Shown piece by piece: positions 8,284 through 24,961 of a DNA stretch of 64,000 bases. A program made the position numbers and the translations under genes. Numbering within the stretch: position 1 is the first letter of the stretch; every line of letters begins with the position of its first letter. The stretch spans positions 66,891 through 130,890 of the forward strand of contig VMGD01000001.1 of NCBI GenBank assembly GCA_007376405.1, read 5' to 3'. Under the pieces are notes generated by a model, which saw only the letters and a list, made by a program, of their open reading frames with translations, did no database searches and was not told the DNA's origin. Source of the stretch: Microgenomates group bacterium Gr01-1014_7. GTDB taxonomy: Bacteria > Patescibacteriota > Microgenomatia > Daviesbacterales > UBA10151.

Positions 8284-11200
8284 TTAAAGTTTGGTTTGAT
8301 AAATTGTAACTTCCTGGTTTTGGTAAATCTTATCTAGTGGGAGCTTATCTTCATCAATAGCCATAGAGAATTCATTTATTATGTAGATGTATTTAATATG
8401 ATTGTGCCTTAAGAAATTTTTAGCTGTCTGTAAACTTTCATCAGTAGATAAATGTGGTATAACATCACTAAAAAAATCCTTAGAAGCTACAATTCTTTTT
8501 TTGTAGTCTGTTAAAAGGATTTGATTTTGAGATTCATCCACTAGATAAACAGCCTTATTTGATAAAGCCGATACATAAGATGTGCTATCGTAAACAAAGA
8601 GCGGCCACGGCTCCTCAATCCTCTTTTTAAGCTTATCATCATAAGGATAAGTCAAAACTACACCATCTTGTTGTTTTGATAAAAACTCTAAGGCCTCTAA
8701 CTCTTTTTTATCAACTCTGGCATGAGGAAGATAATTTGTGTAGTAACTGGCTGTTACCAACGAATTAATCGGACTAATTATTAAAAACAAACCAATTATA
8801 AAACTTAATAAAAACTTGGGTAAATTAACAATTAAGGATAATAATACAACACCACTAATTACCGCTGTTACATAAAGACCATAATAAAAAAATTGAATTG
8901 TATTCCATGGATTTCCTGATTGTATAAAAAGTATTGGAATTAAAAATGAAAGGGTGGAAAAAACAAGTAGAAAAAGAAGATTACTATCTTTAACTATTCT
9001 TTTTATCTTGATCAGTGATAACAAGCTCAACATTCTCAACCCTAAATTACCCGCAATAAATAAGATAAGACTTATAAACTCTGCTGTTATAAATTTCCAC
9101 CAAATTCCCTTCTCCAACCCTACTGTTCTGGCTAATGTTAATCTCATCCATCCTACTCTGTCAGGAGAATCTATCATGGAGTGGATAAACCAAAAAGGCG
9201 CAAAAATCATAAGAGCCGAAGTTGGTTGAAAATTTGCAAAAAATATCACAACAGTAATAATCAATGCACCTATAAAAACTATTAGATAGTCTGCTCTTTT
9301 TTTAAAGAGACCTATTAACACCAAACTGACTAAAACTAAAACTGCACCGTACGCTTTAAAACCTATTAAACCTCCTGCTAATAAAATTGCCAAAGAAAGT
9401 TTCCTTTTTTTTCTGCCGGAGAAAATTAAGACTTGTATTAAGGCTATGATTATCAGTAAAGAAATAGCAAATGGAGGATTTAAATTAAAAGAGATTGATT
9501 GGTTTGCCCAAAAGGCAGACTCTCCGGCAAAATTTCTTTCTTTAATAAAAGAGACTATCCAACCAAAACTACCGGCAAAATAAACAAGATAAAGACTAAA
9601 TAAGGAAGCGATCTTAGTTTTTAAAATTCCCAAGCTTTCTTCAAAAAGATCACGAACAAGATAATAAGTTCCTATACCTAAAGATAAGGAGAATAAAATT
9701 GGATAAAATCTGAAAACTAGATCAAGTACCGGTATCTTTACTAGATAGTTTGTTGCGGCAACTAAAAGATCATAGAAGAAGTGATAGTTTTTTAAAATAT
9801 TGCCGGAAAATATAGGATTTTCAGGTGGAACAGCTTTTATTAACTGGTTTATTAAACTGATGTGCCAAACCCCATCATGAGTATTTGGACCCCAGAAACC
9901 TAAACCAAAAGGATAAACCAATCCATTTTTGAAAGCAGGTATTACTTGAAAAGCTGTTCCCATGATAATTAGTGTGATAATTGCTAGGTCAACTCTATTT
10001 TTAATTTTTGGAATATTTATCTTTTTAAGTTTAGGAAGATAAAGTCCTAAAAACAATATCAGATTTATTAAAATATAGGGGTATATCAAAAACCTAATCT
10101 TAAAAAGACCCAGTATATAGAAAATAAGAGTTAACTCTACTAAACCAACTATCGTTGATAAGAAGAAAGTTTGATATACAGATTTGTTTTTTAAAAGCCT
10201 ATTTATTAGTAAGAATCCGGGAATTATACAGCCAATGGTTAAAAACAAAATAAATGCGATAGTTTTGAATAAAACATTATTCAGCGACCATGCAAATGTT
10301 CCTTCCTCCATTGGTGAATTAATTTTCTTTTGTACTTCTTTTTTGGTAGCATCTAAAATAGCTCCATCAATGGAGGAAATTTTTCCATCAATACCTATAT
10401 CCCTTGGTAAAAATTCTATTGTTCTTGAATGTCCAGCTTCATTTTTGTAAGTAATTTCATAGTTTTCACCTTGTTTGACAACATTAAAATCGGTTATTCT
10501 TCCGTCATCTATAACCCACTTGTGGCCGAAGCTAACCTCATCTAAAACCCTCGTGGCAGAAGTGGCAAAGTTGACACTGTCACATCTGGCCTTAAAACAT
10601 AGTTCCTCTGATCCGTCAATATATTGGCGGATGTCCCTAAATACACTACCATCTTGATTTAAAAACCATCCCGCTCTGTAATAGGGATTCATAAACCAGA
10701 CTACCTTTTTATTCGTAGAAGAGCTTTGCTCATAAGTGCCCAAAGGATCATCCGCCACAATCAAATGTTGCGGGGATAAATCAGGAAATTTGGATTTATA
10801 CCATGAAGCAAAATCTCTCATTGTTGCTAAAGATATCTGGCTTGATTTTCTTTTACTGACAAGTGTTTCGACCTGGTTTTCATATTCCTTTGAATATTTC
10901 TGCCAAGAATAAGAGTTTTCTAAACCAACTACCAATTGAGACAATTGATTCAAAGGTTGTTTAGTATATATATCAATAAGTTTAGAAAAATATTTTATAT
11001 CCAGATTATGATAATCAATATAATCATTTGCTTGAAGGCTGTATGTACTTTCAATTACTCCATTGCCATATCCGTTTACAGGATCTCTGGTTGCCCACTG
11101 AGTTATCACCATAGGTAATTTATTCTCTAAAGTTTGAGCTGGATGTAAGGCATTTTTTTTGGAAGGATAATATGGAGTAGAAAAATATTGACCCCATATT

Positions 11201-11772
11201 TGATAATTGTCGGTTGAGTATTGATCTGCAACTATTAATGCAGCTGAAACTGCATATTTTTTCTGCATATAGTCCAAAGAATAACTATCTATCCACCAGG
11301 CTCCCACAGAAGTTGGATAAAACCCAAAAACTTCCTTAAAGCGGGAGAATACAGAATCTATTAATTTTTCTCTCTCTTCTCTTTCATAACCTGTTAAAAA
11401 TGCACTGCCTGCAGCGTGCCAATTTTCTCCACTGTGGTATTTCACTCCTGCTGCTTTTGCCCAAGTAGGAGTAATCTCTAAAAATAACCCTTTTTCACTT
11501 TGCGATCCTTTAAGAGCACTCGTTATTGTTTTATTACTTAGAGCATCAAATCTTATAAGCCAAGTTGCACTGGCATTAAATCTTTTTAAAATATCCATTT
11601 GTCCTAAAACTGCCGTTTGAGGCTTCTGATCCTTTAAATCCCAAAAATCCTCTCCTCTAACAGGATTTACAATAGAAACAAAAGAATTAGTTTGTGCTAA
11701 AACAGGTAAAGGAAAGGAAAGGAAGAAAAGGAAGGAAAAAAATAAAATAATCCTAAATTTTAAAAGATTCAT
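8284..11772 (-). CDS. large secreted-domain / polytopic membrane fusion protein (N-terminal ~500 aa extracytoplasmic domain + GxWHxS-family membrane domain)
   Basis: 1162 aa. N-terminal signal peptide (MNLLKFRIILFFSFLFFLSFPLPVLAQT), then a ~500-aa soluble domain of unknown, possibly carbohydrate-active function. The C-terminal half is a paralog of 6264..8282 ('NTHDGVWHISLINQLIKAVPPENPIFSGNILKNYHFFYDLL'). Confidence 0.55.
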   Translation of the reverse strand: MNLLKFRIILFFSFLFFLSFPLPVLAQTNSFVSIVNPVRGEDFWDLKDQKPQTAVLGQMDILKRFNASATWLIRFDALSNKTITSALKGSQSEKGLFLEITPTWAKAAGVKYHSGENWHAAGSAFLTGYEREEREKLIDSVFSRFKEVFGFYPTSVGAWWIDSYSLDYMQKKYAVSAALIVADQYSTDNYQIWGQYFSTPYYPSKKNALHPAQTLENKLPMVITQWATRDPVNGYGNGVIESTYSLQANDYIDYHNLDIKYFSKLIDIYTKQPLNQLSQLVVGLENSYSWQKYSKEYENQVETLVSKRKSSQISLATMRDFASWYKSKFPDLSPQHLIVADDPLGTYEQSSSTNKKVVWFMNPYYRAGWFLNQDGSVFRDIRQYIDGSEELCFKARCDSVNFATSATRVLDEVSFGHKWVIDDGRITDFNVVKQGENYEITYKNEAGHSRTIEFLPRDIGIDGKISSIDGAILDATKKEVQKKINSPMEEGTFAWSLNNVLFKTIAFILFLTIGCIIPGFLLINRLLKNKSVYQTFFLSTIVGLVELTLIFYILGLFKIRFLIYPYILINLILFLGLYLPKLKKINIPKIKNRVDLAIITLIIMGTAFQVIPAFKNGLVYPFGLGFWGPNTHDGVWHISLINQLIKAVPPENPIFSGNILKNYHFFYDLLVAATNYLVKIPVLDLVFRFYPILFSLSLGIGTYYLVRDLFEESLGILKTKIASLFSLYLVYFAGSFGWIVSFIKERNFAGESAFWANQSISFNLNPPFAISLLIIIALIQVLIFSGRKKRKLSLAILLAGGLIGFKAYGAVLVLVSLVLIGLFKKRADYLIVFIGALIITVVIFFANFQPTSALMIFAPFWFIHSMIDSPDRVGWMRLTLARTVGLEKGIWWKFITAEFISLILFIAGNLGLRMLSLLSLIKIKRIVKDSNLLFLLVFSTLSFLIPILFIQSGNPWNTIQFFYYGLYVTAVISGVVLLSLIVNLPKFLLSFIIGLFLIISPINSLVTASYYTNYLPHARVDKKELEALEFLSKQQDGVVLTYPYDDKLKKRIEEPWPLFVYDSTSYVSALSNKAVYLVDESQNQILLTDYKKRIVASKDFFSDVIPHLSTDESLQTAKNFLRHNHIKYIYIINEFSMAIDEDKLPLDKIYQNQEVTIYQTKL

Positions 11773-13202
11773 TTTTTAAAAATTGATTTAGTCATATTTA
11801 TAATTTTTGGTTCTAAAAGAATAATAATTACAGTATAGATAATTAACCCTGCAACAATCATTAAAATAACCTGCATTAGTGATATAGGAAGCAAACTTCT
11901 AACTATGTATAAAATAAATCCCATTAGAAGTGCAGTCATTAGAGGTTTTCCTACACTTTGTAAGTAATCCACCGTTACATATTTTGAGGCGATAAATATT
12001 GCTACGAATGAGCTAAGACCTACCAGAGTAAAACCAAAAGCTGCACCATTTAATCCGTAAGCTACTGCCAGCGCAGGGACAAGAATCCAAGTAAGCGCAG
12101 TCCACATAATCATCAATTTAAAAGTTATCGATACCTTTCCTATCGCGTTTAAGGTGTTGGTAAGCGGAGTAGTAATAGAAGCCAAAGCAGAAGTTATACT
12201 AATAAGGGTGAGGGCAGTTAAAGCAGGATTCCATTTACTGTATTTTGGAATGATCTCGGTAAGGGAGGGGGCCACTAAAACAAGTATCACAAGTGAAGGG
12301 AAAGATAAAATACATATAAATAATATCGCTCTTGAAACAGCATTTGATAGTTCTTGCTTTTCATCCTGTAACCTTGAGAATGCCGGAAAGGTTACTTTTA
12401 TAACCTGATCCATAAAAAAGCGCAAAGGCGCATATGCCCATTTTTGCGCCCATCCCAAAAGACCAATACCGGTTTGTCCTAAAATTCCTCCCAAAAGAAG
12501 AGTCATTCCATCATCTTTAATCATTGCCAAAAGTGCATTAGCCTGATATGGAACACCGAATTTAAGTACGGACTTAAATGCACTCACTGAAAAAGCAAGT
12601 CCCGGAAGCCATGGTTGAATCATATAAGTCATGATAAGCCCGGAAAAACCGCGAAGCAGTACCCCTATTGTGAAGCTTGTTACTCCAAAACCTTTCCAGG
12701 CAAGAAAAACAACAGAGATATTAAAAACTATAGTTTCTACGATTTGAGGGATAACCCATTTATTAAACTCAAGCTTTCTTTCTAAGAGTACATTGGGGAT
12801 AGTTTTTAATGAAGAAAGGACTAAAGAGAAAGCTACTGCCCAAAGTAAATATATTGATTTTTGATCCAGCTTGTATAAATTAACAATAACAGGAGTTGCA
12901 ATTAACACAGCGATCAATATTGTCAAAACCAGTAATTGTTGGGCGCTAAAAACAGTCCGCAGCTCTTGCTGTGTCAACTTTTCTTTTTTCTGGATTAGGG
13001 CTGCTGCAAAACCAATATCTCCAAAATAAGCCAAAAAATTAATTAAAGCAGAAACTATAAAGAATACCCCATACTCTGAAGGTTCAAGAAAAACTGTCAG
13101 CAGGACATTAGCAAAAAAGGCAATTGCTTGAATAAGAACGGTCCTTGCAGTTAAAATTCCAACACCTTTAATTACCCTTTTTTTTACAACTTCACTTTCC
13201 AT
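11769..13202 (-). CDS. wzx: polysaccharide/oligosaccharide flippase, Wzx-like (MOP/PST family)
   Basis: 477 aa with about 12-14 TM helices. N-terminus MESEVVKKRVIKGVGILTARTVLIQAIAFFANVLLTVFLEPSEYGVF is typical of PST/Wzx flippases. 4-nt overlap with the downstream gene. Confidence 0.65.
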   Translation of the reverse strand: MESEVVKKRVIKGVGILTARTVLIQAIAFFANVLLTVFLEPSEYGVFFIVSALINFLAYFGDIGFAAALIQKKEKLTQQELRTVFSAQQLLVLTILIAVLIATPVIVNLYKLDQKSIYLLWAVAFSLVLSSLKTIPNVLLERKLEFNKWVIPQIVETIVFNISVVFLAWKGFGVTSFTIGVLLRGFSGLIMTYMIQPWLPGLAFSVSAFKSVLKFGVPYQANALLAMIKDDGMTLLLGGILGQTGIGLLGWAQKWAYAPLRFFMDQVIKVTFPAFSRLQDEKQELSNAVSRAILFICILSFPSLVILVLVAPSLTEIIPKYSKWNPALTALTLISITSALASITTPLTNTLNAIGKVSITFKLMIMWTALTWILVPALAVAYGLNGAAFGFTLVGLSSFVAIFIASKYVTVDYLQSVGKPLMTALLMGFILYIVRSLLPISLMQVILMIVAGLIIYTVIIILLEPKIINMTKSIFKK

Positions 13203-14362
13203 TAATTTATTCCTTTTCTATAGTATAAAATCCACTTGCGCACTCTGGCAAAAGATATAAAAAATAAAACAGTAGTGATACCAATACCCATCAAGGTTAT
13301 TAAATTTGAAAGAGAACGAATCGGGGTATCATAAAGCCTTGCATCTATTTCATGGTTACCTTTTCCCAATATAAATGTCATCAACCCAGTACTATTATTT
13401 TTATAGTCAACCGGTATTTGTTTACCATCAACAAATACTTTCCAGTTAGGGAAATAGTATTGTGATAAACGAATAATAGTATGGCTGTTAGCTTCAGTTT
13501 TAAAGCTCATCCAGTTTGAGCCTTCCTTAAAATCTAAAATTTTAGTATCCCCTGTTAATAATTCATATCTGGACTGCGCTTGTTTGGCAGGTGACTCTTT
13601 AGCGTAAATTGGCAAGTAACCATTATGAATCAAGTTACTCTCAAACACCTTTGGTAAAAGATAAAAGGATGAAAGCAACAATCCCAAAAATAAACTTCCC
13701 AGACTAAACCAAAGAAATCTTGACTTTTTAATTTTAAAAAATAATATTGCAGCTACCAGTAAAACTAATGGAACAAAAATTATCTGAGAAAGATTAGAAG
13801 AGGTGAGCAAACTTGCTATAAATATCCCGGAAAGAAGAAGGTTTCTTATATTAATGTCTTCTCTTAATCTAATGAGTGAGTAGATAGTTGCAGCAAAAAA
13901 CATAAGTGCCCACATTTCTCCTAACACTCCTCTTTGGTAAAAATTTAATAGATAATATGGTACAAAGCTATAAATTAAAGCGAGTAAAATCGCTTTTAAA
14001 TTTCCCACATATTTTCTTGAAAGAATATAGATAAATAAATATGAGCCAAAAAAAGAAACAATAAATAATACTCTAATAGAAAAAGCCAAATTGTTACTTA
14101 ATAAAAAAGTAAGTTCACCAAAATAATAGGGGAGTGGAGCGTAGAAATTAAAAAAGGGGTATCCATATGAACCACCCAAATCAGGCACCCAGCGACAGGG
14201 AATTTGGTAATCTTTAATACACTTATCCATCTCAAATAGCCGAGCACTATGAAGATCCTCTAGGCGCATGAAAGAAGGTTCTGATAAAAATAGCCAGACT
14301 AATCCCACTAATAAAATTAGAGCCCAAAGGGACCACTTTGTCGTAAGTTTTTTGAGAAGCAC
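13202..14362 (-). CDS. membrane protein, short member of the 'DD...IPxRWVPD...GYP' paralog family
   Basis: 386 aa. 'MRLEDLHSARLFEMDKCIKDYQIPCRWVPDLGGSYGYPFFNFYAPLPYY' motif is shared with the three following genes. Shorter (fewer TM helices) but keeps the family's C-terminal 'LYDTPIR...TM' module. Confidence 0.5.
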   Translation of the reverse strand: MLLKKLTTKWSLWALILLVGLVWLFLSEPSFMRLEDLHSARLFEMDKCIKDYQIPCRWVPDLGGSYGYPFFNFYAPLPYYFGELTFLLSNNLAFSIRVLFIVSFFGSYLFIYILSRKYVGNLKAILLALIYSFVPYYLLNFYQRGVLGEMWALMFFAATIYSLIRLREDINIRNLLLSGIFIASLLTSSNLSQIIFVPLVLLVAAILFFKIKKSRFLWFSLGSLFLGLLLSSFYLLPKVFESNLIHNGYLPIYAKESPAKQAQSRYELLTGDTKILDFKEGSNWMSFKTEANSHTIIRLSQYYFPNWKVFVDGKQIPVDYKNNSTGLMTFILGKGNHEIDARLYDTPIRSLSNLITLMGIGITTVLFFISFARVRKWILYYRKGIN

Positions 14363-15993
14363 ATCCCTAATGATACTAAAAATCCGGCTAAAGAGATAGC
14401 ATCGAGAGCCTTTTTAAAAGTTGTCTCCTCAAATGATATTTTTAGCTGATGCTGTCCAGGCGGAACATTGACATTAATCTGTCCAAAAGGTTGGCCGATT
14501 TCTATTTTATTTTGCTTACCGTCTATTTTAGCCACCCAACCCGGAAAGAAATATTTATTGTAATTTATTGTTGCGCTAACTGTTGACTCAACTGTAATCA
14601 AAGCATCTAAATCATTTAATCTCTCAAATTTCTTAATTTCTCCATTCTCAACAGAGACTAAAGGATAATTTTGATTAGGTCTCACTTGGGTATGCTTGGG
14701 TAATCTTAAATATTCTTCCTGAGTCTCTAAATATTCCTTACTTGCGGAAGGAGTGGGAATATATCTATTTAGAAAGTAGCTATCTTGTCTGCCTAGAAAA
14801 TCCTCTGGTCTAAAATAACTTCCGCTGGTAATTAAAGTAAGGACAATTATAACTGTAGCAATGATTGACTTAGACTTAAATTTGTCAAAAACTATTATTA
14901 AAAGTGGGGTTGCAAAAGTGGTTAGTATTAAAAATCTCCAGGGAAACTGGAAATAAGATAGCAAGGGCAGATTATTCCATAAAAACGTAGACCTGTAATT
15001 CATAAGAAAAAAGGCGGAGCCTAGACAGACAAAAACCCAAACAAGTAAAATCTTTATTTCTTTCCTAAATCTGGACCAGGAAGTAATAGCTATAATAAAT
15101 CCTGCAATTACCAAAAGTAAATTTACTATTCCCAAGAAGAAAGACATACCATCTCCCGGACCTGGAACAGACGCTCCATATCCCCAATAAAGAGTAATTA
15201 GTTGTGAAATCGTAGGATAATGATCGGCAAAATTAAAAACAGTATCATATTTCATAAGGTTTGAATCCACTATTGCCGGTAGCCAAAAATACATACTGGT
15301 AAATAAACCCAAAAAAATCATTAAAATTGACCTTACTGCAAATGCCTTTTTATTTTCACTTGCAAAAAATTGCATTAAAAAAAACAGAGCCACAAAAGGA
15401 AAAAACATATATGAAGTAATATTGTGCGACAACACTAGGGAAGAAAGGGTAAGTGCTCCAATCCCTATCCACCTTAAGTTTGATTCCTTAATCTTTACAA
15501 TTGATAATAAAATTAAGGGTAAAAACACAAAACTTACTACCTCGCCGACCGCTCCACGGATATACAGATCAACCGCTCTGTAAGGGGTATAAATATATAA
15601 GGTTGCTCCGGCTAAACTTAAAGATCTTGAGATAAACTGTCGCAAAAGTAGATACATGAATACAAAAGATATGGGGATGCTAATAAAAAATAATGCTTTG
15701 ATGCTATCAACCAAACTTAGACCCAAAAGGTGAAATATTTCAGCTATATAAAAAGGCAGCGGAAAAACAAAGTTAAATAAAGGATAGCCAAAACCAAAAC
15801 TTAAATCGGGTACAAAGCGGGGAGGAATTTTACCGGAGAGAAGAGTTTTATGCATCTCATATAACCAGGCAATGTGAATATCATCAGACGCCCCATAAAA
15901 ACCCGGCACAAAAAGCGCCCAACAAGCCGGGATAAACAAAAGAGGCACTATTACCCACCAGTATCTAGTTAAAACGTTTTTTAGATTTACCAT
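14317..15993 (-). CDS. polytopic membrane protein, 'DD...IPxRWVPD...GYP' family (putative GT-C-like)
   Basis: 558 aa. 'GASDDIHIAWLYEMHKTLLSGKIPPRFVPDLSFGFGYPLFNFVFPLPFY'. A DD motif directly follows TM1. Confidence 0.55.
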   Translation of the reverse strand: MVNLKNVLTRYWWVIVPLLFIPACWALFVPGFYGASDDIHIAWLYEMHKTLLSGKIPPRFVPDLSFGFGYPLFNFVFPLPFYIAEIFHLLGLSLVDSIKALFFISIPISFVFMYLLLRQFISRSLSLAGATLYIYTPYRAVDLYIRGAVGEVVSFVFLPLILLSIVKIKESNLRWIGIGALTLSSLVLSHNITSYMFFPFVALFFLMQFFASENKKAFAVRSILMIFLGLFTSMYFWLPAIVDSNLMKYDTVFNFADHYPTISQLITLYWGYGASVPGPGDGMSFFLGIVNLLLVIAGFIIAITSWSRFRKEIKILLVWVFVCLGSAFFLMNYRSTFLWNNLPLLSYFQFPWRFLILTTFATPLLIIVFDKFKSKSIIATVIIVLTLITSGSYFRPEDFLGRQDSYFLNRYIPTPSASKEYLETQEEYLRLPKHTQVRPNQNYPLVSVENGEIKKFERLNDLDALITVESTVSATINYNKYFFPGWVAKIDGKQNKIEIGQPFGQINVNVPPGQHQLKISFEETTFKKALDAISLAGFLVSLGMCFSKNLRQSGPFGL

Positions 15994-17629
15994 AGAAAAC
16001 TACCCCTATTAAAATTATTAAAGAGACTAGAGAAGTAACATTGGAAATTTTACGAATAGTAGTATCAACAAATTTTCCCGATACAAAATAGTCTCCCCCT
16101 CTCTCAAAGTTAATACTTATTCTTCCCAAGTAATTTTTATTAGAGAAACTCATCTTTTGATCATTAACTTTAACTTCCCAGATTGGAAAATCAAAAACAG
16201 GTACCTCAATGCTTGTTTTATCTTCCACCTTTGCTTGAAACTGCCATTTATTTGATCTATTCTCAAACTTCAAAACTTCCCCTTTTCCTGAAACTACAAT
16301 TGGCTTATCAGGTGCAGCCTCTCTGGGTTGTACAGCGGTCTGGGGCAGGTAATCCAAGATGGCAGCTTTTTGCTGGTCCTCCCAAAGTTTACCTGATAAT
16401 TTTTCCTGATCAGTCATACTAGGATAAAATTCTTTTGGTTTAAAATAATTCCAGTTTAAAATAATGATTAAGATAATTAAAATTAAGCTTAAGTATTTTT
16501 TATAAACTTCTTTAAAATTTTGAACAAGATATGCTCCGAGTAGACTGGATGAGAAAATTGCCACTGATAAAAATCTCCAGGGGAATTGAGTGAATTTTAA
16601 AACTTCAATTTTTTCCCAGATAAAAGCAGATTTTATATGTGTCATAAAAATTGAAAACAAAAATGTCATAAATAAAAGGAGAGATAAACTATTAAATTTT
16701 CTTTTATAAATTATGCTAAAGAGAAACATTATAAAGGCAGCTACTACTATCCACCAATGTGGCCAGCCTATCTGAAAAGATATAGTGTCATTTGTACCCG
16801 GAGATGATGCTCCATAGCCCCAGGAGCGGTCAAATAAAAGCTGAGGTACGGTTACAAAATGGGCTCTAAAATTTAAATCTAACCTAATTAGGTTATCTAT
16901 TTGAACTAAATTCTTCTCAAAATATGCAGGAAAGATAAAGAAAGAAGACAGTCCTATTCCCAAAATTAGGCCTAAAGCCAGCGAAGATAAATTCTTCCAT
17001 TTTTCCAGTACCAGTTGGTACAGAATGAATATTAAAAGCACAGGAAAAAATAGAAGAATCATAATATTATGACTCACTAAAAAGATCGCCAAGGAGACGG
17101 ATAAACCAACTAAATATTTGGTGCTTTTAAGCTTAGTTAGCTTTAAGGCAAAATAAAAAACCAAAGGGATGGTAGCCATAGCAAAACTTTCAGCAACGGC
17201 TCCCCTGACATAGGTATCAAGGGAACGGTATGGGGCAAAGGTATAAAGCACGGATGCTAAAATTGCAGGGTATACTCCAAAAAGCTCTTTTGCCAAAAGA
17301 TACATTGAAATTGCACCTAAAAACAAAGGAATAGCAAAAAGCAACTTGGCGGAAGCTAAAAAACCAAAAATGTAGCTTAGAATTGCCGCAAGATAGTAGG
17401 GAAATACACTGTAATAGTTAAACAAAGGATAACCATTACCATATCCCATATCCGGCACCCATCTACAAGGAATTTGTAAATCCTCAATGCATTTTCTCAT
17501 CTCAAAAATCCTCATCACCTGTAAATCATCGTGGTGAGAAAAATATCCGGGCAGAAAAAGAGGCCATAAAGTAAGACCTAAAAGCAGTAGAGTAAAAACA
17601 AACCAATACTTAGCTAAAACTTTTTTCAT
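15965..17629 (-). CDS. polytopic membrane protein, 'DD...IPxRWVPD...GYP' family
   Basis: 554 aa. 'SHHDDLQVMRIFEMRKCIEDLQIPCRWVPDMGYGNGYPLFNYYSVFPYY'. Confidence 0.55.
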   Translation of the reverse strand: MKKVLAKYWFVFTLLLLGLTLWPLFLPGYFSHHDDLQVMRIFEMRKCIEDLQIPCRWVPDMGYGNGYPLFNYYSVFPYYLAAILSYIFGFLASAKLLFAIPLFLGAISMYLLAKELFGVYPAILASVLYTFAPYRSLDTYVRGAVAESFAMATIPLVFYFALKLTKLKSTKYLVGLSVSLAIFLVSHNIMILLFFPVLLIFILYQLVLEKWKNLSSLALGLILGIGLSSFFIFPAYFEKNLVQIDNLIRLDLNFRAHFVTVPQLLFDRSWGYGASSPGTNDTISFQIGWPHWWIVVAAFIMFLFSIIYKRKFNSLSLLLFMTFLFSIFMTHIKSAFIWEKIEVLKFTQFPWRFLSVAIFSSSLLGAYLVQNFKEVYKKYLSLILIILIIILNWNYFKPKEFYPSMTDQEKLSGKLWEDQQKAAILDYLPQTAVQPREAAPDKPIVVSGKGEVLKFENRSNKWQFQAKVEDKTSIEVPVFDFPIWEVKVNDQKMSFSNKNYLGRISINFERGGDYFVSGKFVDTTIRKISNVTSLVSLIILIGVVFYGKSKKRFN

Positions 17630-19347
17630 TTCTTTGTTTTAAGATATAGCCCTAAAACAGCTATTATAGATATCAAAGTAATTATATTACCTATTTGTCT
17701 GACCGGTGTATCTTGTAACTGCGCTTTGATTTTATATTTCCCCGGAGAAAGCTTAAAACTGATAAGACCAAAACAATACTCTTCTCCCCTGCAATCAACA
17801 GTATGAGGTAAGGTGTTTCCCCCTGCAGTTACTTTCATTCCCGGGAAATCAAAAAGAGGCAGTCTTATTAATGCTTCTTTTTTCACCTCCACCTCTCCGG
17901 TTTGAAAATTACTGCCCTTTTGATAGTTTAAAAAGTTTGCTTGTCCTTCTAAGACCTCCGGAAACTTGGGAGCTTTATGGTTGGGAGGAAGCTTAGCATA
18001 AATAGGTAAATAATCAAAAATGCTGATAGTTAGTTGCTTTTCCCATAATTTACCAGAGAATTTATCCGTATCAGATATATTTACCCAATCCTTAGGAGTA
18101 AAAAATTGACTGTGAAGTATAAAAGTTGCAGCTAAAATAAAAAGAGCGAAAATTAGAGCAATTTTTTTATTAAGTAAGCCAACGAAAAAAACTGTGATAG
18201 CCCCCAGGAAAGATAAAAGAAAAATACTATCCGTTAAAAATCTCCAGGGAAATTGTAGCCACCAAAGAACCGGTAATTTTTCCCAGATAAAAGAAGATTT
18301 TTGGTGAATCAAAAAAAGTACTGCCAACTCTGTAATACTAAAAACAATTGCTAAAATCGCCATATTTTTTTGTTTTTTAAAAAAGGCAAAGGCTAGGATT
18401 AAACCAAGCAGACCAAGCATCCAGTGTATCTGACCTGTGGAAAGAGTTAGGTTATTATCCTGGCCGAGTCCCGATGACCCATATCCCCAAAGATTAGAAA
18501 TAAGTAGTCTATACAAAGATACGAAGTGCTGCCGGTAGTCAAAATATCCGCCTTGCAAGGTTTCAAGATGAACAAATTTTCCCTCAAAAATAACCGGCAA
18601 AGTAAAAAAGGATGCCAAGCCTATTCCCAATATCCCCCCAAAAAAAAATTTTGGGATCATCTTCCATCTATTCTTAATAATTAATAAAACCAAACACCAC
18701 AAAAGGGCAATGGGTGCAAAAATTAAAGTCATAAGATTGTGAGTAATTAGCAAGAAAGCAGTAGAAAGAGAAAGAAAAATTAAATATTTTAGTTTGTTTT
18801 TAGTTATTAGTTGATAAACAGCCCAAAAAACTAAGGGGTATAAAATTAAACTCCAAAATTCACTAAGCGCTCCCCTGACATAAATTTCCAATGCTTTGTA
18901 TGGAACATAGGTATAGAGCATTGCTCCCAAAAGAGCCGGTAGAGTTGTAGTGGCAAAACTTTTTTCTTTTACTTCCCCATCAAAAAAGGCTTTTAAAAAA
19001 ATAAACATAAAAACAGTTGAAAGAATGTATCCTAAGATAAATAAGATTTTTACAGAGTCAATTATTTGAATTCCAAAAAGATGAATAAAAGCTCCAATGT
19101 AATAAACAATGGGTGGATAAAATAAAAATTGAGGATAGCCATATTGATATCCCATATCCGGTACCCAGCGACAGGGGATTTGCAGGTCTTGAAAACACCT
19201 AAACATTTGGTGGACCCGAAAAGCTTGCAGATCATCTTGCATGAAGAAAAAACCCGGCCTAAGCAGTTGAATAAAGGTTGGGATAGTAAGTATTAAAGTT
19301 AATATTATCCAAAACGAATAAGGTCTTTTTTCAAGGAAATCAAACAT
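17626..19347 (-). CDS. polytopic membrane protein, 'DD...IPxRWVPD...GYP' family
   Basis: 573 aa. 'FMQDDLQAFRVHQMFRCFQDLQIPCRWVPDMGYQYGYPQFLFYPPIVYY'. ATGA overlap with the downstream gene. Confidence 0.55.
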   Translation of the reverse strand: MFDFLEKRPYSFWIILTLILTIPTFIQLLRPGFFFMQDDLQAFRVHQMFRCFQDLQIPCRWVPDMGYQYGYPQFLFYPPIVYYIGAFIHLFGIQIIDSVKILFILGYILSTVFMFIFLKAFFDGEVKEKSFATTTLPALLGAMLYTYVPYKALEIYVRGALSEFWSLILYPLVFWAVYQLITKNKLKYLIFLSLSTAFLLITHNLMTLIFAPIALLWCLVLLIIKNRWKMIPKFFFGGILGIGLASFFTLPVIFEGKFVHLETLQGGYFDYRQHFVSLYRLLISNLWGYGSSGLGQDNNLTLSTGQIHWMLGLLGLILAFAFFKKQKNMAILAIVFSITELAVLFLIHQKSSFIWEKLPVLWWLQFPWRFLTDSIFLLSFLGAITVFFVGLLNKKIALIFALFILAATFILHSQFFTPKDWVNISDTDKFSGKLWEKQLTISIFDYLPIYAKLPPNHKAPKFPEVLEGQANFLNYQKGSNFQTGEVEVKKEALIRLPLFDFPGMKVTAGGNTLPHTVDCRGEEYCFGLISFKLSPGKYKIKAQLQDTPVRQIGNIITLISIIAVLGLYLKTKK

Positions 19348-19350
19348 AAA

Positions 19351-20832
19351 TTATGGAAAAACTTTATATAAAACCATTGCATCCTGTTCGGAACCATCCA
19401 AGGGCCTGGCTTTAGGATATTCTCTAACAAGTTCCGCTTTTTGAATGACCAGCTTTAGATTTTTTTTATTGCCAACAAAATAGGTCGCATTCTCCCTTGC
19501 GGTATCTCTAATTTGAGCTGAAATTGTAGCACTGCCGCCTATAATTGCTATATCATCTTTATCCAAGTATATCCAAAGACCATCGGGCAAGGTTCCAAAA
19601 GATCCTTCTGTCCCGACAATTACTTTTCCCTCTTTCCTTTTTTCTTTTAAAAACCCTGCAATATCTTTTAAGCCAAAACCTGCAGTCCAGTCCTCAAAAT
19701 AACCTTTTCTTTCCTCATTTGGCAGCGAATCCGGCGGAGGATTTGTTAAAAGCTGATAATCAAATTTAAGGGGCAAAAAAACTACAAGTATCAAAAGTAT
19801 TATGAGAGGTATTACCCTTGATATTTTTTCCATACCAAATCCTGCCAAAATTAAAAGTAGCGGTATAGAAGGAAGTAAATATCTTGCTGTAAAAGTTCTC
19901 AAAAATGTCATCTCCACCAAAAGAGGGATAATTGCCCAAGCCAGAATTACCCATCCCAACTTGTTTTTCTCCTTAACCATAAACCATAAACCATAAACCA
20001 TCAGACCAATTATTGGCCATGTTAAAAGTTTGGGAAACCAGTCTGAAATATCATGAAAATGCGGTATAAAAGGATCGAGCGGCCTGCCCACCAGTTCCAC
20101 TGGAGAGAAAACATAATCGGCATTTCTGGCAGATAACTGACGAAACTCCGGACCCAGTCTTAAAAGGTTATACATGACAAGGGCAATTACCACTGCCACT
20201 CCCCAGAATGCTACCAGTTTAACCAGTCTATATTTACCTGCCCCAGCTTTCTTAAACCCTAAAATGGAAACAGGCAAAATTAGCAGATTAAGCATTCCCG
20301 GAGTTTTGGTTAAAATTGCTCCACCCAGCATATAGCCTAAAATCATTGCTAAATCCAGTCTCAAGCTTTTTAAAAGCCAAACGGCAAAATAAACTACCCA
20401 GACGGTAAAGGCAGAGAGCATTGAATCTACCAAAGCCATCCGGTCAAAAAAAACAGTATATGGAGTAATTACATACACTAGAGATGCCCAAAGAGCAGCT
20501 TTGGCATTAAAAACTTTTCTGCTCAGGAAAAAAACACCTAAAAGAGTGAAAAAGCCGGACAGAACTGACAAAAATCTTCCGGCCAAAAGCGGATCATGGA
20601 TAAACTTAAAAAGAGGAATTAAGCTCCACATAAAAAGCGGGGTTTTGCCGTCAGTTTGAGGTAAAAAGCGAAGAGTCGGTTCAGACCTCATCACTTGAGC
20701 CCAGCGGATATAGATTGCCTCATCCGCAAAAATCGGCTGCAGGGTTAAATTAGGTAGCCTGAGAATAAAATAGGCAATTATTAAGCAAACGAGAACTATT
20801 ATTTCTCTTTGGTATTTCCAGACAAAATTCAC
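19351..20832 (-). CDS. GT-C fold glycosyltransferase, ArnT/PMT-like
   Basis: 493 aa. 'LQPIFADEAIYIRWAQVM' acidic loop after TM1; multi-TM. Confidence 0.6.
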   Translation of the reverse strand: MNFVWKYQREIIVLVCLIIAYFILRLPNLTLQPIFADEAIYIRWAQVMRSEPTLRFLPQTDGKTPLFMWSLIPLFKFIHDPLLAGRFLSVLSGFFTLLGVFFLSRKVFNAKAALWASLVYVITPYTVFFDRMALVDSMLSAFTVWVVYFAVWLLKSLRLDLAMILGYMLGGAILTKTPGMLNLLILPVSILGFKKAGAGKYRLVKLVAFWGVAVVIALVMYNLLRLGPEFRQLSARNADYVFSPVELVGRPLDPFIPHFHDISDWFPKLLTWPIIGLMVYGLWFMVKEKNKLGWVILAWAIIPLLVEMTFLRTFTARYLLPSIPLLLILAGFGMEKISRVIPLIILLILVVFLPLKFDYQLLTNPPPDSLPNEERKGYFEDWTAGFGLKDIAGFLKEKRKEGKVIVGTEGSFGTLPDGLWIYLDKDDIAIIGGSATISAQIRDTARENATYFVGNKKNLKLVIQKAELVREYPKARPLDGSEQDAMVLYKVFP

Positions 20833-20869
20833 TATACTATTGTACGTCTGTTAGTTTCCAGAGGCAAGC

Positions 20870-21610
20870 CTAATATTTTCCTCTGAGGTCATTTATTCTA
20901 ATTCTGAACATGTCATAGATGGCAGCTGCGGCATCTTTTATCACTTGTACCCTTTCGGTATCAACATAATTCCACTCCACCCCAACTTCCGCGATATTAA
21001 ATCCATACTTTTTTGCCAGATATAGTACTTCCACATCAAATCCCGCATTTACAGCCCCACCCTTAAAATGTACTACTCCCCATTCACTTTTAATCTTGGG
21101 AATAATTTTTTCCACGGCTTTTTTATTAAAAGCCTTGAATCCGCATTGAGTGTCCGTAAAAGGCAAATCCAAAATAATATTTCGCAGAACCGAAAAACCC
21201 CAGGCTGCCAATTTTCTCGCCAGAGGAGCTCCTTTTCTTCCCTGACGGGAACCAATCACAATATCAAAGCCTTCTTCAAATTTAGGTATAAATTTCTCCA
21301 GCTGGTTAATTGGGGTAGCCTGATCCATATCTGTAAAAAGGATTATTTCTCCATTGCTAGCAAGCATACCGGTCATTACCGCATTAGCTTTCCCGCCATG
21401 CGGAACCTGAATTAAATTAAATTTGGGATTTTTCTTGACATACTCCTCAATGACTTCTTTTGTTTCGTCTATTGACCCATCATCAACAATAATTACCTCA
21501 TATTCTAAAGCCATACCTTTTAAAAAATCTTTTACTTCTTCCAATACTCCTCTTTTTAAATTTTTGGCTTCATTATATGCGGGTATGACAATGGAAAGTT
21601 TGGTACTCAT
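20870..21610 (-). CDS. GT2 polyprenyl-phosphate sugar synthase (DPM1/GtrB/CsbB-like)
   Basis: 246 aa. MSTKLSIVIPAYNEAKNL...VIIVDDGSIDET...TDMDQ...DTQCGFKAF is the signature of dolichyl/undecaprenyl-phosphate hexose synthases. Confidence 0.75.
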   Translation of the reverse strand: MSTKLSIVIPAYNEAKNLKRGVLEEVKDFLKGMALEYEVIIVDDGSIDETKEVIEEYVKKNPKFNLIQVPHGGKANAVMTGMLASNGEIILFTDMDQATPINQLEKFIPKFEEGFDIVIGSRQGRKGAPLARKLAAWGFSVLRNIILDLPFTDTQCGFKAFNKKAVEKIIPKIKSEWGVVHFKGGAVNAGFDVEVLYLAKKYGFNIAEVGVEWNYVDTERVQVIKDAAAAIYDMFRIRINDLRGKY

Positions 21611-23799
21611 TAGGGCCTCCCACTTGGGTTAGCAATTAATTTATATAGTTTTACTCCATAAACTTCTTGCTCCCATTCTATTTTAGACCATCCAAAAGCA
21701 GCAATCTCATGTTTTGGGCTGTGTGTCGGATCACATACAGGGTCCTCGCAAACTACAAACAGCTGATCTGTTTTCTCAGCCGGAACCGGTTTGGGTTTGT
21801 GCCCATATAAATCCAGATAAAACTGGTAAGTCGAATCATAATTATTTTTGGCAAGTAGAGCAAAATTAAATGATCTTCCTTCCGATTTATCTATAATAAA
21901 CTTGGCCACGTCTTGCGTTCTTTTTAACTGGTTATTGGGTGGGTAAACAAGAGGATTTTTTTGCAAATTTACCAGAGTTAATGCCAAAAGCAAAACAGGA
22001 ACTGCTGTCCAAAAAAGTAAACGAATTCCCACATGAGACGTGGGAACTCGAACTAAATTTAGGGATGCTGCCAAAAGCAAATACGGAGCAGGGTTTAAAA
22101 ACCCTAAATAATGATCATAAATGCTGCTTTGATAAAGGGATAAACCCACAAGGCCAATAACCAGCCATACCGCAAGGGCGAATAAAGACCACTCCATCTC
22201 CTTTCCTTTAAACCTTTGCACAATCAGTTTAATTATTGGCAGCAGAATTAATATACCTACTACGGCAGTTAATATTAAATTTTCTGCTGTGATATATCTG
22301 CCTATCAGATTATTAAAATAAAGACCGGGAACTTTGACAAGAATACCCAAAGGGTTAAATTCAACTGCCTGATGATCAAAGAGAAGTTTTTTTATGGCAC
22401 GGAAATTTAAAAAATTATTACGAAGATCAAATAAAACAAACGGCAACATGACAGCCCAAAAAGCAATTACCGCCCCCAGACTGCCCGTCAGAATATTTCT
22501 TCCCTTTTTTTGAAAATATTGAAAAAACCAGAGGATAAGGTAGATTGGAATTAAAAGCACGACCAGATAATGCATCTGCAAAGCTGCTGCAGCTGCTGCT
22601 CCTACTAAAATAAACCATAAAAAATTTTTGGTTTGGTAAGCTTTATAACATCCCCAGATACCAATTAAAGAAAAAAAAGGGGCCGGGTTGGGGTTCCAAG
22701 AAGAACGGGAATAAATAATATTCACCGGTGAAATAGCATAAAGAAAAGCTGCAATTAAAGCCGAGGCTCTCCCAAACCAGATCTTACCCAGATAATAAAT
22801 CAACATTACTGTTGCCACTCCAATTAAGGCATCCATTCCGGCAGCTGCAGTGGGATTTAGCCAAAAAATAGCCATGGGGATAGTCATCATATAGTAGTAA
22901 AACGGACCTAAATAAATATTGCCGACAGAAGTGGGCGGACCAATAAAGGGTAAATCACCTTCTGTTAAAATTTTCTTAATAATAATTGCATCCCGTCCCT
23001 CATCCCCCAAAAAAGTCATATACCCAGAAAGTTTATAGAAACGCAAAAAGCAGGCAAGTAAAATTATCCCTAGGAGGCATAGGAACAAAGTTTTATTATC
23101 CTTAAGTTCCCACCAAAGTTTTATTAGATCAAGGTAAGATTTAATAATTACATTGAAATTCGCTCCTGTTGGTTTGCCGGAAAGCCGCGGAAAGTGATTT
23201 ACCCCAACCTGACCAATCTTGAAACCGGCCTTTTTGGCTTTGATGGCTAGTTCGGCATTGATCATGGCCCCCCTACTTGATTCCAAACGGGGAATTTTTT
23301 CCAAAACTTTTCTTTTAACCATCTTAAACCCGCAATCCACATCTTTTAAAGTTAGTCTGAAAAATGCCAGCAGTGTTAATTTCCAGCCCTTTTTAAAAAA
23401 AATTCTAAAAAAAGGGTCTCGTCTTTTGATGCGATAGCCAATAATCAGATCGTTAGTTTCTATTTTTTCCAAAAACTTGTTCACTTCGGAAAAATCAAAC
23501 TGCCCGTCTCCGTCGGTATAAACAATGGTGTCGAATTTGGCATTATAAAAGCCGGATTTTAATGCTTCCCCGTAGCCTGAATTTTTGGGATGATGAATGA
23601 CTCTAACTTTGGGATTTTGTTTGGCCAGACTGTCTGCTACTTTACCTGTTTTATCTGTAGAGCCGTCATCAACAACAATCACTTCATAATCTTCAAGTTT
23701 TAACTTTTCCAGAACTTTTAAGGCATTTTCAATCGTATTTTCAATATTTCCTTCTTCATTAAACACAGGGAAGAAAACAGAAAGATTTTTAATGGACAT
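21610..23799 (-). CDS. bifunctional fusion: N-terminal GT2 polyprenyl-phosphate sugar synthase domain + C-terminal GT-C membrane glycosyltransferase domain
   Basis: 729 aa. Residues 1 to about 235 are DPM1/GtrB-like (FFPVFNEEGNI...VIVVDDGSTDKT...TDGDGQ...DVDCGFKMV). Residues from about 240 to 729 are multi-TM, with the 'FLGDEGRDAIIIKKILTEGDLPFIGPPTSVGNIYLGPFYYY' motif shared with genes 37935.., 39457.. and 42686... Confidence 0.7.
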   Translation of the reverse strand: MSIKNLSVFFPVFNEEGNIENTIENALKVLEKLKLEDYEVIVVDDGSTDKTGKVADSLAKQNPKVRVIHHPKNSGYGEALKSGFYNAKFDTIVYTDGDGQFDFSEVNKFLEKIETNDLIIGYRIKRRDPFFRIFFKKGWKLTLLAFFRLTLKDVDCGFKMVKRKVLEKIPRLESSRGAMINAELAIKAKKAGFKIGQVGVNHFPRLSGKPTGANFNVIIKSYLDLIKLWWELKDNKTLFLCLLGIILLACFLRFYKLSGYMTFLGDEGRDAIIIKKILTEGDLPFIGPPTSVGNIYLGPFYYYMMTIPMAIFWLNPTAAAGMDALIGVATVMLIYYLGKIWFGRASALIAAFLYAISPVNIIYSRSSWNPNPAPFFSLIGIWGCYKAYQTKNFLWFILVGAAAAAALQMHYLVVLLIPIYLILWFFQYFQKKGRNILTGSLGAVIAFWAVMLPFVLFDLRNNFLNFRAIKKLLFDHQAVEFNPLGILVKVPGLYFNNLIGRYITAENLILTAVVGILILLPIIKLIVQRFKGKEMEWSLFALAVWLVIGLVGLSLYQSSIYDHYLGFLNPAPYLLLAASLNLVRVPTSHVGIRLLFWTAVPVLLLALTLVNLQKNPLVYPPNNQLKRTQDVAKFIIDKSEGRSFNFALLAKNNYDSTYQFYLDLYGHKPKPVPAEKTDQLFVVCEDPVCDPTHSPKHEIAAFGWSKIEWEQEVYGVKLYKLIANPSGRP

Positions 23800-23821
23800 G
23801 GTAATATGCTAACATCAAATT

Positions 23822-24961
23822 ATGCACAAAACAACGAAAGACCTTATTCTTCTTTTGGTTGCGGTACTAACGATAACCTTTCTTGTTTGGCTTCCACATT
23901 TTTTGGCTTTACCAGATTTTTGGGGATTATCCTTCAAAGAAGGATTTTCTACAATCTATCGCAACTTTGACGGTTTGGAATATGTCACTATTGCTAAAAC
24001 TTTTTATAATCCTGCTGCTTTAGCCTCTGTTCCACAAACCCTTCCTGCCAATTATTTTGCTTCCCACTTCCCCGGATATTCAATCCTAATGACCCTTTTT
24101 GCACCGGTTTTGGGGTATCTAAAATCAATGCTTTTTGTTTCCCTAATATCTACAATTTTAGCAGTTTGGTCTTTTTACTTTTTACTTAAAACTTTTAACT
24201 TAACTTCCCATCCTCTTTTTTTAAGTTTTATTTTTCTCATCTTGCCTGCCAGGTGGTTGATTGTGCATAGTGTTGGCTCATCCGAGCCGTTATTTTTATT
24301 TTTGACAATAACCACGCTTTATTTTTTTATTCGTTTCGAGCAAACCGGCCATTACACCGACATAGTATTTGCAGGTGTTGCCGGCCTGCTTGCCCAAATC
24401 ACCAGACCGCCGGGAATTTTGCTTTTTATTGCTCTAATGCTTTATGTACATTGGCGCAAAAAAGCCTGGCTTGATCCTTTAAAATACTTCCCAATGATTC
24501 TTATCCCATTGGGACTACTGGGAGTTTTCTATCTATTTAGTCAAACGTATGGGGACTTTTGGGCTTACTTTAAAAGCGGAGATAACATTCACCTTACCTT
24601 CCCTCCTTTCCAGGTTTTTAATAAACACCAGTTTTGGGTAGGGGATATCTGGCTGGAAGATATTGTTTATATTTTTATATTGGGATTTTTGGGGGGAGTG
24701 ACCCTGTGGAGGAAAAAACTATACCCCTTGGCTTTTTTTGTTTTAACCTATTTAACAGCCGCCATCTTTGTTGCCCACAGAGATATTAGCAGATATATTC
24801 TTCCGGTCACTCCGTTTATCCTAATTGCCTTTGAAAAAGTTTTAACTTCCAAAGAATTTAAAATTATTCTGCCGATTATTGCGCTGGCAATTTATCTCTA
24901 TACCCAAAACTTTATGCTCACCAACACCGCCCCCATCCCCAATCTGGAAATTTATAACTAA
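23822..24961 (+). CDS. polytopic membrane protein, unknown family
   Basis: 379 aa, multi-TM. Divergent from the upstream minus-strand operon with only a 22-bp spacer. 4-nt overlap with the convergent GT2 gene end. Confidence 0.45.
   Translation: MHKTTKDLILLLVAVLTITFLVWLPHFLALPDFWGLSFKEGFSTIYRNFDGLEYVTIAKTFYNPAALASVPQTLPANYFASHFPGYSILMTLFAPVLGYLKSMLFVSLISTILAVWSFYFLLKTFNLTSHPLFLSFIFLILPARWLIVHSVGSSEPLFLFLTITTLYFFIRFEQTGHYTDIVFAGVAGLLAQITRPPGILLFIALMLYVHWRKKAWLDPLKYFPMILIPLGLLGVFYLFSQTYGDFWAYFKSGDNIHLTFPPFQVFNKHQFWVGDIWLEDIVYIFILGFLGGVTLWRKKLYPLAFFVLTYLTAAIFVAHRDISRYILPVTPFILIAFEKVLTSKEFKIILPIIALAIYLYTQNFMLTNTAPIPNLEIYN

Follow-up and report, generated by a model that had tools for sequence, protein, structure and literature searches.

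In the genome of Microgenomates group bacterium Gr01-1014_7, a tiny groundwater bacterium, four consecutive genes encode related membrane proteins, here termed D, C, B, and A in their order along the reverse strand. They lie in a 64,000-nucleotide stretch of contig VMGD01000001.1 (GenBank assembly GCA_007376405.1, positions 66,891 to 130,890 of the forward strand), which is called the window below and to which all coordinates refer. Sequence comparison and structural modeling make it likely that D, C, and B are extracytoplasmic glycosyltransferases of the glycosyltransferase C (GT-C) class that depend on lipid-phosphate-linked sugars and differ in specificity, and that A is a derivative that is probably non-catalytic.

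The four genes match exactly the open reading frames (ORFs) of 386, 558, 554, and 573 amino acids (aa) given in a preliminary description of this DNA, and all are on the reverse strand. D (573 aa, 17626 to 19347) is the first gene of the array and, like C (554 aa, 15965 to 17629), encodes a full-length GT-C-type membrane protein; the structure of C was modeled. B (558 aa, 14317 to 15993) is the most divergent full-length copy (IPPRFVPDLSFGFGYP; EEYLRLP replacing DYLP), and most orthogroup-specific substitutions fall in it. A (386 aa, 13202 to 14362, with a GTG start) is a short derivative of a fourth paralog type, here called E. Pairwise BLASTP comparisons gave E values from 1e-34 to 1e-116 at 27 to 37% identity, far beyond chance (D versus C, 36% identity, E value of 1e-116), and a four-way alignment contained 41 invariant columns; the four proteins are true paralogs, as had been described. 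Their genes abut or overlap by 4 to 46 nucleotides (nt), and a search of the window found no fifth family member. The NCBI annotation of A (P0121) starts at M32, which yields 355 aa and omits the first transmembrane (TM) helix, TM1. A GTG at 14362, overlapping the end of B by 46 nt (14317 to 14362), gives A a TM1 that aligns with those of its full-length relatives, and the 386-aa form is preferred for this reason. An Rfam scan of the window returned a single tRNA, unrelated to the array.

All four paralogs carry an N-terminal signature consisting of an (E/D)D pair directly after TM1, IP(C/P)R(W/F)VPD(L/M) 17 residues on, and then GYPxF. These elements had been described in the same form, together with a following N, which in D is replaced by L. 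In C, the signature spans residues 34 to 71 (17417 to 17530, reverse strand), with D34-D35, IPCRWVPD at 53 to 60, and GYPLF at 66 to 70. Within a 31-sequence alignment, D35 never varies and D34 shows at least 90% conservation, and both are kept in all four orthogroups; the signature as a whole is invariant or nearly so in the 31 sequences and across the orthogroups. At the other end, the four paralogs have in common a C-terminal beta domain followed by a final TM helix, represented in C by a beta-sandwich predicted at residues 444 to 520 (16070 to 16300, reverse strand) and a helix at 524 to 553. The terminal helix had been described correctly, but the DTP(I/V)R motif attributed to this region is present in A and D only, reading DTTIR in C and a degenerate EETTFK in B.

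Pfam searches, profile-profile comparison, and the structural matches of the C model, three independent lines, all agreed with the GT-C-like character proposed for these proteins in the preliminary description. C matched PF10131 (PTPS_related) with 49 bits (E value of 4e-13) and A with 33.4 bits, against a gathering cut-off of 26.4; for PF13231 (PMT_2), A was above the gathering score and C just under it (24.1 versus 26.1). Among the aligned relatives, PF10131 was found in 30 of 31 (E ≤ 0.1), PMT_2 in 20 of 31, and STT3 (PF02516) weakly in 3 of 31. A PF10131/PMT_2-like name exists for these proteins, which the preliminary description could not assign to a named glycosyltransferase family. PF10131 is placed in the Pfam GT-C clan CL0111 and is itself of unknown function, so membership explains little (PMC7801869); in the literature searched, this clan listing was the sole mention of PF10131 found, and one other match, a Clostridium acetobutylicum adhE study, shared just the phrase "6-pyruvoyl-tetrahydropterin synthase-related." The PF10131 match covers model positions 1 to 339 of 621 only and begins at residue ~70, so that the TM1-DD-IPxRWVPD module is not covered by this model. 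Orthologs appear in public records as "6-pyruvoyl-tetrahydropterin synthase-related protein" or, in some cases, "glycosyltransferase family 39 protein," the latter apparently on the strength of the PMT_2 match. A full HMMER scan sized the family at 18,060 clusters at 50% identity for E ≤ 1e-3 and 5,662 at E ≤ 1e-30. None of the four paralogs matched an NCBIfam family, and a search of PDB sequences with the family profile gave nothing meaningful, only a spurious rRNA methylase at an E value of 1.1.

Comparison by hhalign with the six PMT/ArnT-like proteins of the window gave a probability of 97.5% (E value of 6e-12). It placed the HHDD motif of the family on the (G/A)DE loop 1 motif of those proteins and aligned R142 with an Arg that they conserve. 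From the 31-sequence alignment, AlphaFold2 produced a model of C that reached a predicted local distance difference test (pLDDT) score of 84 and a predicted TM-score (pTM) of 0.87. When this model was searched against PDB with Foldseek, only GT-C structures were returned at probability 1.0, and matches at 0.9 to 1.0 comprised AglB, ArnT, STT3, PglB, Pmt4, Emb, AftD, DPY19, and ALG12. The entries included AglB 3wak (E value of 5e-5), ArnT 5ezm and 5f15, PglB/STT3 5ogl and 6s7o, and yeast and human STT3, with further matches to EmbA/B/C (7bve, 7bvc) and AftA. All significant (E ≤ 0.001) and high-probability near-full-length matches were GT-C enzymes, and no non-GT-C fold covering the full length of the model was found among the PDB matches. 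A GT-C core is predicted, and no characterized family outside the glycosyltransferases matched. On the basis of these profiles and the model, the D/C/B/A family is of the GT-C fold and PF10131/PMT_2-like.

The helices of the C model, hydropathy, and the distribution of Lys/Arg-rich loops point to a topology of 12 TM helices with both termini in the cytoplasm. Loop 1 of C is predicted outside at residues 26 to 75, which would place both the acid pair and RWVPD on the extracytoplasmic side. Predicted loop 2 (residues 118 to 144) bears PY…YVRGxxxE and is followed by an SHN turn, predicted loop 4 (236 to 288, where model confidence is low) bears WGYGxS, and predicted loop 5 bears QFPWRF; a last predicted outside region (397 to 523) contains the beta-sandwich. 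Forty-four residues are identical in the four full-length orthogroups, and 34 of them fall in predicted outside segments (odds ratio 3.6, p = 2.6e-4). The conserved charged residues D34, D35, R56, D60, R142, E147, H187, and R352 are all predicted outside, K95 being the exception. Such clustering is what would be expected if a GT-C active site lay on the outer side of the membrane. Positions that are conserved within but differ between orthogroups are likewise mostly predicted outside (15/20), for the greater part in loop 1 beside the acid pair, which argues for distinct specificities of D, C, and B.

A scan of species-representative genomes recovered 79 loci, all from Microgenomates-type bacteria of the candidate phyla radiation (CPR; Daviesbacteria, Woesebacteria, Shapirobacteria, and Collierbacteria), in which orthologs were assigned by profile searches of the locus ORFs together with the best match to a window copy. 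The order D-C-B was found in more than 40 Microgenomates genomes. D orthologs occur in 66 of the 79 loci at 50 to 75% identity to the window copy and B orthologs in 55 loci at 48 to 72%; C orthologs are 46 to 81% identical to theirs. A neighbor-joining tree of the common columns resolved four clades corresponding to B, C, D, and the fourth type (E/A). At the fourth position, a long form of ~569 aa (E) is found at 11 loci and accounts for most of the 120 database matches listed for A, and a short form of 380 to 394 aa is found in the window, in four further loci (L001, L006, L008, L062), and in proteins P0123, P0127, P0140, P0141, and P0147. In more distant genomes, a single family member takes the place of the array, flanked by the PMT_2 gene and wzx. 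Because the orthogroups are separate, the order is conserved, and single-copy genomes have their gene in the same slot, the array is ancient, duplicated in situ long ago and retained as a set. Recent tandem duplication was considered and rejected, as orthologs are 50 to 75% identical versus 27 to 37% between paralogs. The proposal that a tandem quadruplication had diversified acceptor or donor specificity is upheld in that the genes lie in a glycan operon and vary between orthogroups mostly on the predicted outer side, but the array consists of old orthogroups spread across Microgenomates and is not a recent expansion. Many of the loci (L001 to L079) carry titles such as "uncultured Gammaproteobacteria/Pseudomonadales bacterium" (binchicken co-assembly metagenome-assembled genomes) despite clear Microgenomates synteny; these labels look like placeholders or errors.

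The surroundings of the array supply the other parts of a pathway. Multi-component transmembrane glycosylation combines a GT-A lipid-sugar synthase, a flippase, and a GT-C enzyme (PMC8035078), and all three component types are present at this locus, as glycosyltransferase family 2 (GT2) genes, GtrA/Wzx genes, and GT-C genes, and are kept in 51 to 60 of the 79 loci. Upstream in the same operon, and like all genes given with coordinates in this paragraph on the reverse strand, are a PMT_2-type GT-C gene (19351 to 20832), a GT2 gene of 246 aa (20870 to 21610), and a GT2+PMT_2 fusion (21610 to 23799), each recognized by Pfam. A GT2+GtrA-domain gene (24958 to 26142) opens a segment (24958 to 30693) that also holds dTDP-sugar genes (RmlB-, RmlD-, and RmlC-like, an epimerase, and a nucleotidyltransferase). 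Downstream are a Wzx-type flippase (11769 to 13202; Polysacc_synt_3, E value of 6e-52) and, adjoining it, a 1162-aa uncharacterized envelope protein (8284 to 11772). The upstream order seen in the window recurs in 51 to 58 of the 79 loci, and wzx and the 1162-aa gene adjoin the array in 59 to 60. The conserved arrangement runs from a 379-aa divergent membrane protein through one to four GT2+PMT_2 fusions, the 246-aa GT2, the PMT_2-type GT-C, the array, and wzx to the 1162-aa protein, often with its 672-aa paralog. The nearest NCBIfam families of the operon GT2 domains are PgfS (best), ArnC, Dol-P-hexose, and PpgS synthases.

The family most probably works like the ArnT/GtlB/GacL class. Cytoplasmic GT2 enzymes of the operon would load sugars onto undecaprenyl phosphate, and a GtrA-domain or Wzx-type protein would flip the lipid-linked sugar. 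D, C, and B, each with its own donor, acceptor, or linkage specificity, would then pass sugar from the flipped donor on to a glycoconjugate at the cell surface, for which a wall polysaccharide containing rhamnose is the likeliest candidate. The active site would be formed by the extracytoplasmic loops, with the beta-sandwich tethered by the final TM helix; the loop 1 acid pair D34/D35 could act as a base or bind a metal, and the phosphate could be held by R56, R142, and R352. In A, the beta-sandwich, anchor helix, and tail may be kept under selection, A acting, for example, as a partner that binds the acceptor or provides a scaffold for the active paralogs.

Several results weigh against this interpretation. 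The family has no characterized member, and no CAZy-type assignment was found for it; activity, donor, and acceptor are read from homology and neighborhood. B and D alone gave no PF10131 match at E ≤ 0.01. In the hhalign comparison, the DD and DE acids are shifted by one residue, and C and the GT-C structures, with TM-scores of 0.38 to 0.45 and 11 to 15% identity, are alike at the level of fold only. The matches of the operon GT2s to polyprenyl-phosphate sugar synthases are all far under the NCBIfam equivalog cut-offs, and the GT2 domain fused to D-type proteins elsewhere (see below) resembles rhamnosyltransferases more than lipid-phosphate sugar synthases, its best match also being below cut-off. 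A promoter and terminator scan of 11000 to 25000 returned counts at the level of shuffled sequence and was uninformative.

The array could instead encode polymerizing or branching transferases that act in a hetero-oligomer, in the manner of EmbA-EmbB/EmbC or Pmt1-Pmt2, and build a glycan stepwise outside the cell with A as a structural subunit. We regard this as possible, if on the doubtful side. The strictly conserved tandem order with its overlapping junctions is consistent with it, as is the presence of Emb and AftD, which carry extracytoplasmic sugar-binding beta domains, among the structural matches. So are natural head-to-tail fusions of family members (L043, P0241, P0242, P0267, P0261), which are topologically allowed because both termini are predicted in the cytoplasm and which hint at cooperation between neighbors. 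The fusions could, however, be sequencing or gene-calling artifacts, and many genomes have a single copy in the same slot.

Protein O-glycosylation was also weighed. Here the paralogs would be PMT-, PgfM-, or PglL-like enzymes acting on Ser/Thr-rich pili, S-layer, or surface proteins, each serving one protein class or adding one successive sugar. PMT_2 is the second-best Pfam match, STT3, AglB, and Pmt4 rank high among the structural matches, and the best NCBIfam match of the neighboring GT2s is PgfS, the GT2 of the protein-glycosylation operon of Streptococcus mutans (PMC5856776, PMC12041528). However, the four paralogs have no PF02366 PMT, MIR, or PMT_4TMC match, their beta-sandwich resembles accessory domains of glycoside hydrolases and not the peptide-binding domains of oligosaccharyltransferases (OSTs) or PMTs, and polysaccharide pathways typically include genes such as the Wzx and dTDP-rhamnose genes of this operon. 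We consider protein acceptors unlikely.

The preferred reading, with D, C, and B as transferases to a surface glycoconjugate, treats the fourth gene separately. A lacks ~180 aa that align to C residues ~244 to 425 and are present in E, B, C, and D; alignments place the deletion junction at H246|N247 (13622 to 13627, reverse strand). The stretch comprises external loop 4, four TM helices, the QFPWRF motif, and the helix that follows it, and since an even set of helices is removed, the predicted topology is preserved. TM1 to TM7, the beta-sandwich, the last TM helix, and the cytoplasmic tail are retained. GT-C enzymes have been described as combining a conserved and a variable module (PMC10154233), and A keeps the conserved module and has lost the variable one. 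A had been described as a shortened variant, which is true of its length, but it is not simply a shortened enzyme: its C-terminal membrane module is gone and the catalytic motifs are decaying in its clade.

The short forms group together within the full-length E clade of the neighbor-joining tree, which indicates a single deletion event. In place of HHDD they carry RLED (window), NRSD, AQND, EQ-N, or nothing recognizable; the D of RWVPD is lost in 3 of 5 genomic short copies; YVRGxxGE has become Y(I/L)K…, with the Arg retained in the window copy only; and SHN is replaced by SSN, SYQ, SYD, SYE, or SAD. Mean identity in the N-terminal module is 0.58 among short forms versus 0.70 among E proteins, and in the C-terminal part 0.69 versus 0.68. 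The A comparisons are at 43 to 58% amino acid identity, and synonymous sites are therefore saturated. The beta-sandwich, last TM helix, and tail, RVRKW(I/L)xYY(R/K)K(G/R)IN, are nearly unchanged in short forms. This tail, which follows the last TM helix in the E/A type and is modeled as a helix, is strongly conserved there and absent from B, C, and D; the final 13 codons of A, RVRKWILYYRKGIN, together with its stop codon, occupy 13202 to 13243 (reverse strand). An AlphaFold model of A (pLDDT 85.7) retained the N-terminal GT-C module and the beta-sandwich. In Foldseek searches, the first ~260 to 285 residues matched the N-terminal part of STT3/ArnT (probability 0.97 to 1.0, root-mean-square deviation [rmsd] 5 to 7 Å), and the beta domain matched the accessory beta-sandwich of the GH146 arabinofuranosidase 8k7y (rmsd 2.8 Å over 81 columns) and the sterylglucosidase 8exd (rmsd 4.0 Å over 91 columns), as well as GH30/GH5 xylanases. 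At least 10 independent sequences have an uninterrupted short-form ORF. The idea that A is a one-off pseudogene was rejected, as intact short forms with the same deletion are present in several genomes and database entries.

From this pattern, A is probably a maintained, non-catalytic derivative of E. That it is a still-active minimal GT-C, with the seven-helix module and the beta-sandwich sufficient for catalysis, seems quite unlikely. The window copy speaks against a non-catalytic A in that it keeps E35-D36, R57, D61, R144, and E149; its reading frame is unbroken and conserved across several genomes, and its model is confident. As the least decayed short copy, it could have residual activity. 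Nevertheless, sister short forms lack one or both HHDD acids, the Arg-Gly of YVRG, and SHN, all short forms lack the QFPWRF motif and loop 4 that are invariant in the full-length orthogroups, and the N-terminal module is the part in which constraint has relaxed. A more specific suggestion, which we offer as speculative and unlikely to be right in full, is that the A clade, known from several Daviesbacteria-like genomes, is a natural "half" GT-C, a conserved seven-helix module lacking the variable one, in which catalysis has been abandoned and which would act through its beta-sandwich and conserved cytoplasmic tail as the acceptor-binding or scaffolding subunit of a Microgenomates-specific, hetero-oligomeric D/C/B assembly line for extracytoplasmic glycan.

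It is very improbable that the proteins are GT-C-shaped non-transferases, such as a PIG-U-like non-catalytic subunit or a transporter: the GT-C clan does have at least one non-transferase member, PIG-U (PMC7801869), but the invariant acid pair after TM1, the invariant Arg, Glu, and His concentrated on the predicted outer face, the position of the genes within a glycan-synthesis operon with lipid-sugar synthase-like GT2s, and GT2 fusions in other lineages all argue otherwise.

We then compared the array, read as a set of GT-C transferases, with described systems. A and C exceed the gathering score of PF10131, with only the first part of that model matched, and B and D are below threshold. Another close class is ArnT/PMT_2 (PF13231; GT83/GT39-like, including GtlB, GacL, and PgfM-type enzymes of Gram-positive bacteria): the PMT_2 matches of the array span TM2 to TM7, ArnT is one of the top structural matches, and the operon logic of GT2, flippase, and GT-C is the same (PMC8035078). 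The nearest worked example in logic is the side chain addition of streptococcal rhamnose polysaccharides by GacI/J, the Wzx-type GacK, and GacL (PMC8035078). Unlike members of the ArnT/PMT_2 class, with which identity is 11 to 15%, the array proteins have a much longer loop 1 with its own IPxRWVPD…GYPxF signature, add a C-terminal beta-sandwich and terminal TM helix, and have no PF02366 match. The defining domains of GT39/PMT enzymes (PF02366, PMT_4TMC, and the eukaryotic MIR) were not found in the four paralogs. The OSTs AglB, STT3, and PglB are the best Foldseek matches of C, at TM-scores of only ~0.4, and the C-terminal domain of the array proteins is a beta-sandwich of ~80 aa with a TM helix and not an OST periplasmic domain. 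The consensus and motif lines that were inspected showed no WWDYG motif, a dedicated search not having been made.

Two further systems share features with the array. YfhO (PF09586), which works with CsbB and GtcA, is an outside GT-C acting on a sugar carried by undecaprenyl phosphate (C55-P-sugar) made by a GT2, in the glycosylation of lipoteichoic and wall teichoic acids (PMC5836110, PMC8035078). The four paralogs differ in lacking a PF09586 match and in being ~300 aa shorter, although a few family members have weak PF09586 matches at the C-terminal beta/TM region. The mycobacterial proteins EmbC-EmbA-EmbB, encoded in that order, are likewise three tandem GT-C paralogs, each with an extracytoplasmic C-terminal beta domain, and these domains bind sugars. 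The Emb proteins differ in their size (~1,100 aa), 15 TM helices, large carbohydrate-binding domains, and decaprenyl-phosphate arabinose donor, and there is no sequence likeness to the array beyond the fold.

In the literature searched, four features appear to be new: the ordered, ancient D-C-B-(E/A) array, the loop 1 signature outside the Pfam model, the beta-sandwich-plus-anchor architecture, and the truncated, decaying fourth copy. The GT-C family itself already has a Pfam entry and annotations in public genomes, and nothing on GT-C arrays in Patescibacteria was found in that literature. The genomes of CPR bacteria, or Patescibacteria, are tiny, and these bacteria rely on cell-to-cell contact with others. 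In this window, ~45 kb is given to envelope glycosylation, including roughly 15 GT-C-like membrane proteins. An old, ordered set of three to four specialized paralogs, a defined group of invariant residues that are predicted outside and suitable for mutagenesis, and a large family with no assigned function provide targets toward the surface glycan of uncultivated bacteria. A serves as a natural test of what a GT-C can lose while its gene persists, and it is relevant to a published proposal that acceptor binding by small GT-C enzymes may require a separate partner (PMC8035078). Current understanding is not overturned by these observations; a known enzyme class and pathway logic are extended to a poorly studied lineage.

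Fusion proteins were found among relatives of the array. D-type proteins with an N-terminal cytoplasmic GT2, of 805 to 832 aa, occur in L021 (7569 to 10004), L035 (7503 to 10001), L044 (7599 to 10016), and L060 (7569 to 9938), and further D-type/GT2 fusions are P0249, P0265, P0268, P0280, and P0359. These fusions tie the family to sugar-nucleotide-dependent steps. Assignment of the fused GT2 as a lipid-phosphate sugar synthase was tried and is unsupported, a rhamnosyltransferase subfamily being its best NCBIfam match. The head-to-tail fusions join two to five family members in single ORFs of 1093 to 3329 aa (P0241, P0242, P0267, and P0261, and L043 at 10001 to 13285, 1094 aa); they may be genuine multi-domain enzymes or read-through or assembly artifacts of tandem arrays. 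One family relative, P0360, ends in C-terminal TPR repeats. An extra polytopic membrane protein of ~419 aa, absent from the window, lies between B and the fourth copy in L006 (13208 to 14467) and also in L008, L062, L017, and L029.

Residues 614 to 1161 of the 1162-aa protein, its C-terminal membrane part, are 31% identical to the adjacent 672-aa protein (6264 to 8282), and the two proteins have in common the motif HDG(V/L)WH…PP(E/Q)NPxFSG. Neither has a Pfam, NCBIfam, or PDB sequence match. Because its gene lies beside wzx in 59 of 79 loci, the 1162-aa protein might be a polymerase or ligase of the pathway. Envelope-glycosylation genes are unusually dense for a CPR genome from 762 to 46509. 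Besides the array, Pfam identified PMT/PMT_2-like GT-C genes at 1663 to 3291, 4426 to 6267, 19351 to 20832, 21610 to 23799 (GT2-fused), 37935 to 39509, and 42686 to 44158. Polytopic proteins with no Pfam match are encoded at 3288 to 4448, 6264 to 8282, 8284 to 11772, 23822 to 24961, and 39457 to 40950, and a YfhO homolog is encoded at 44161 to 46509 (PF09586, E value of 3e-23).

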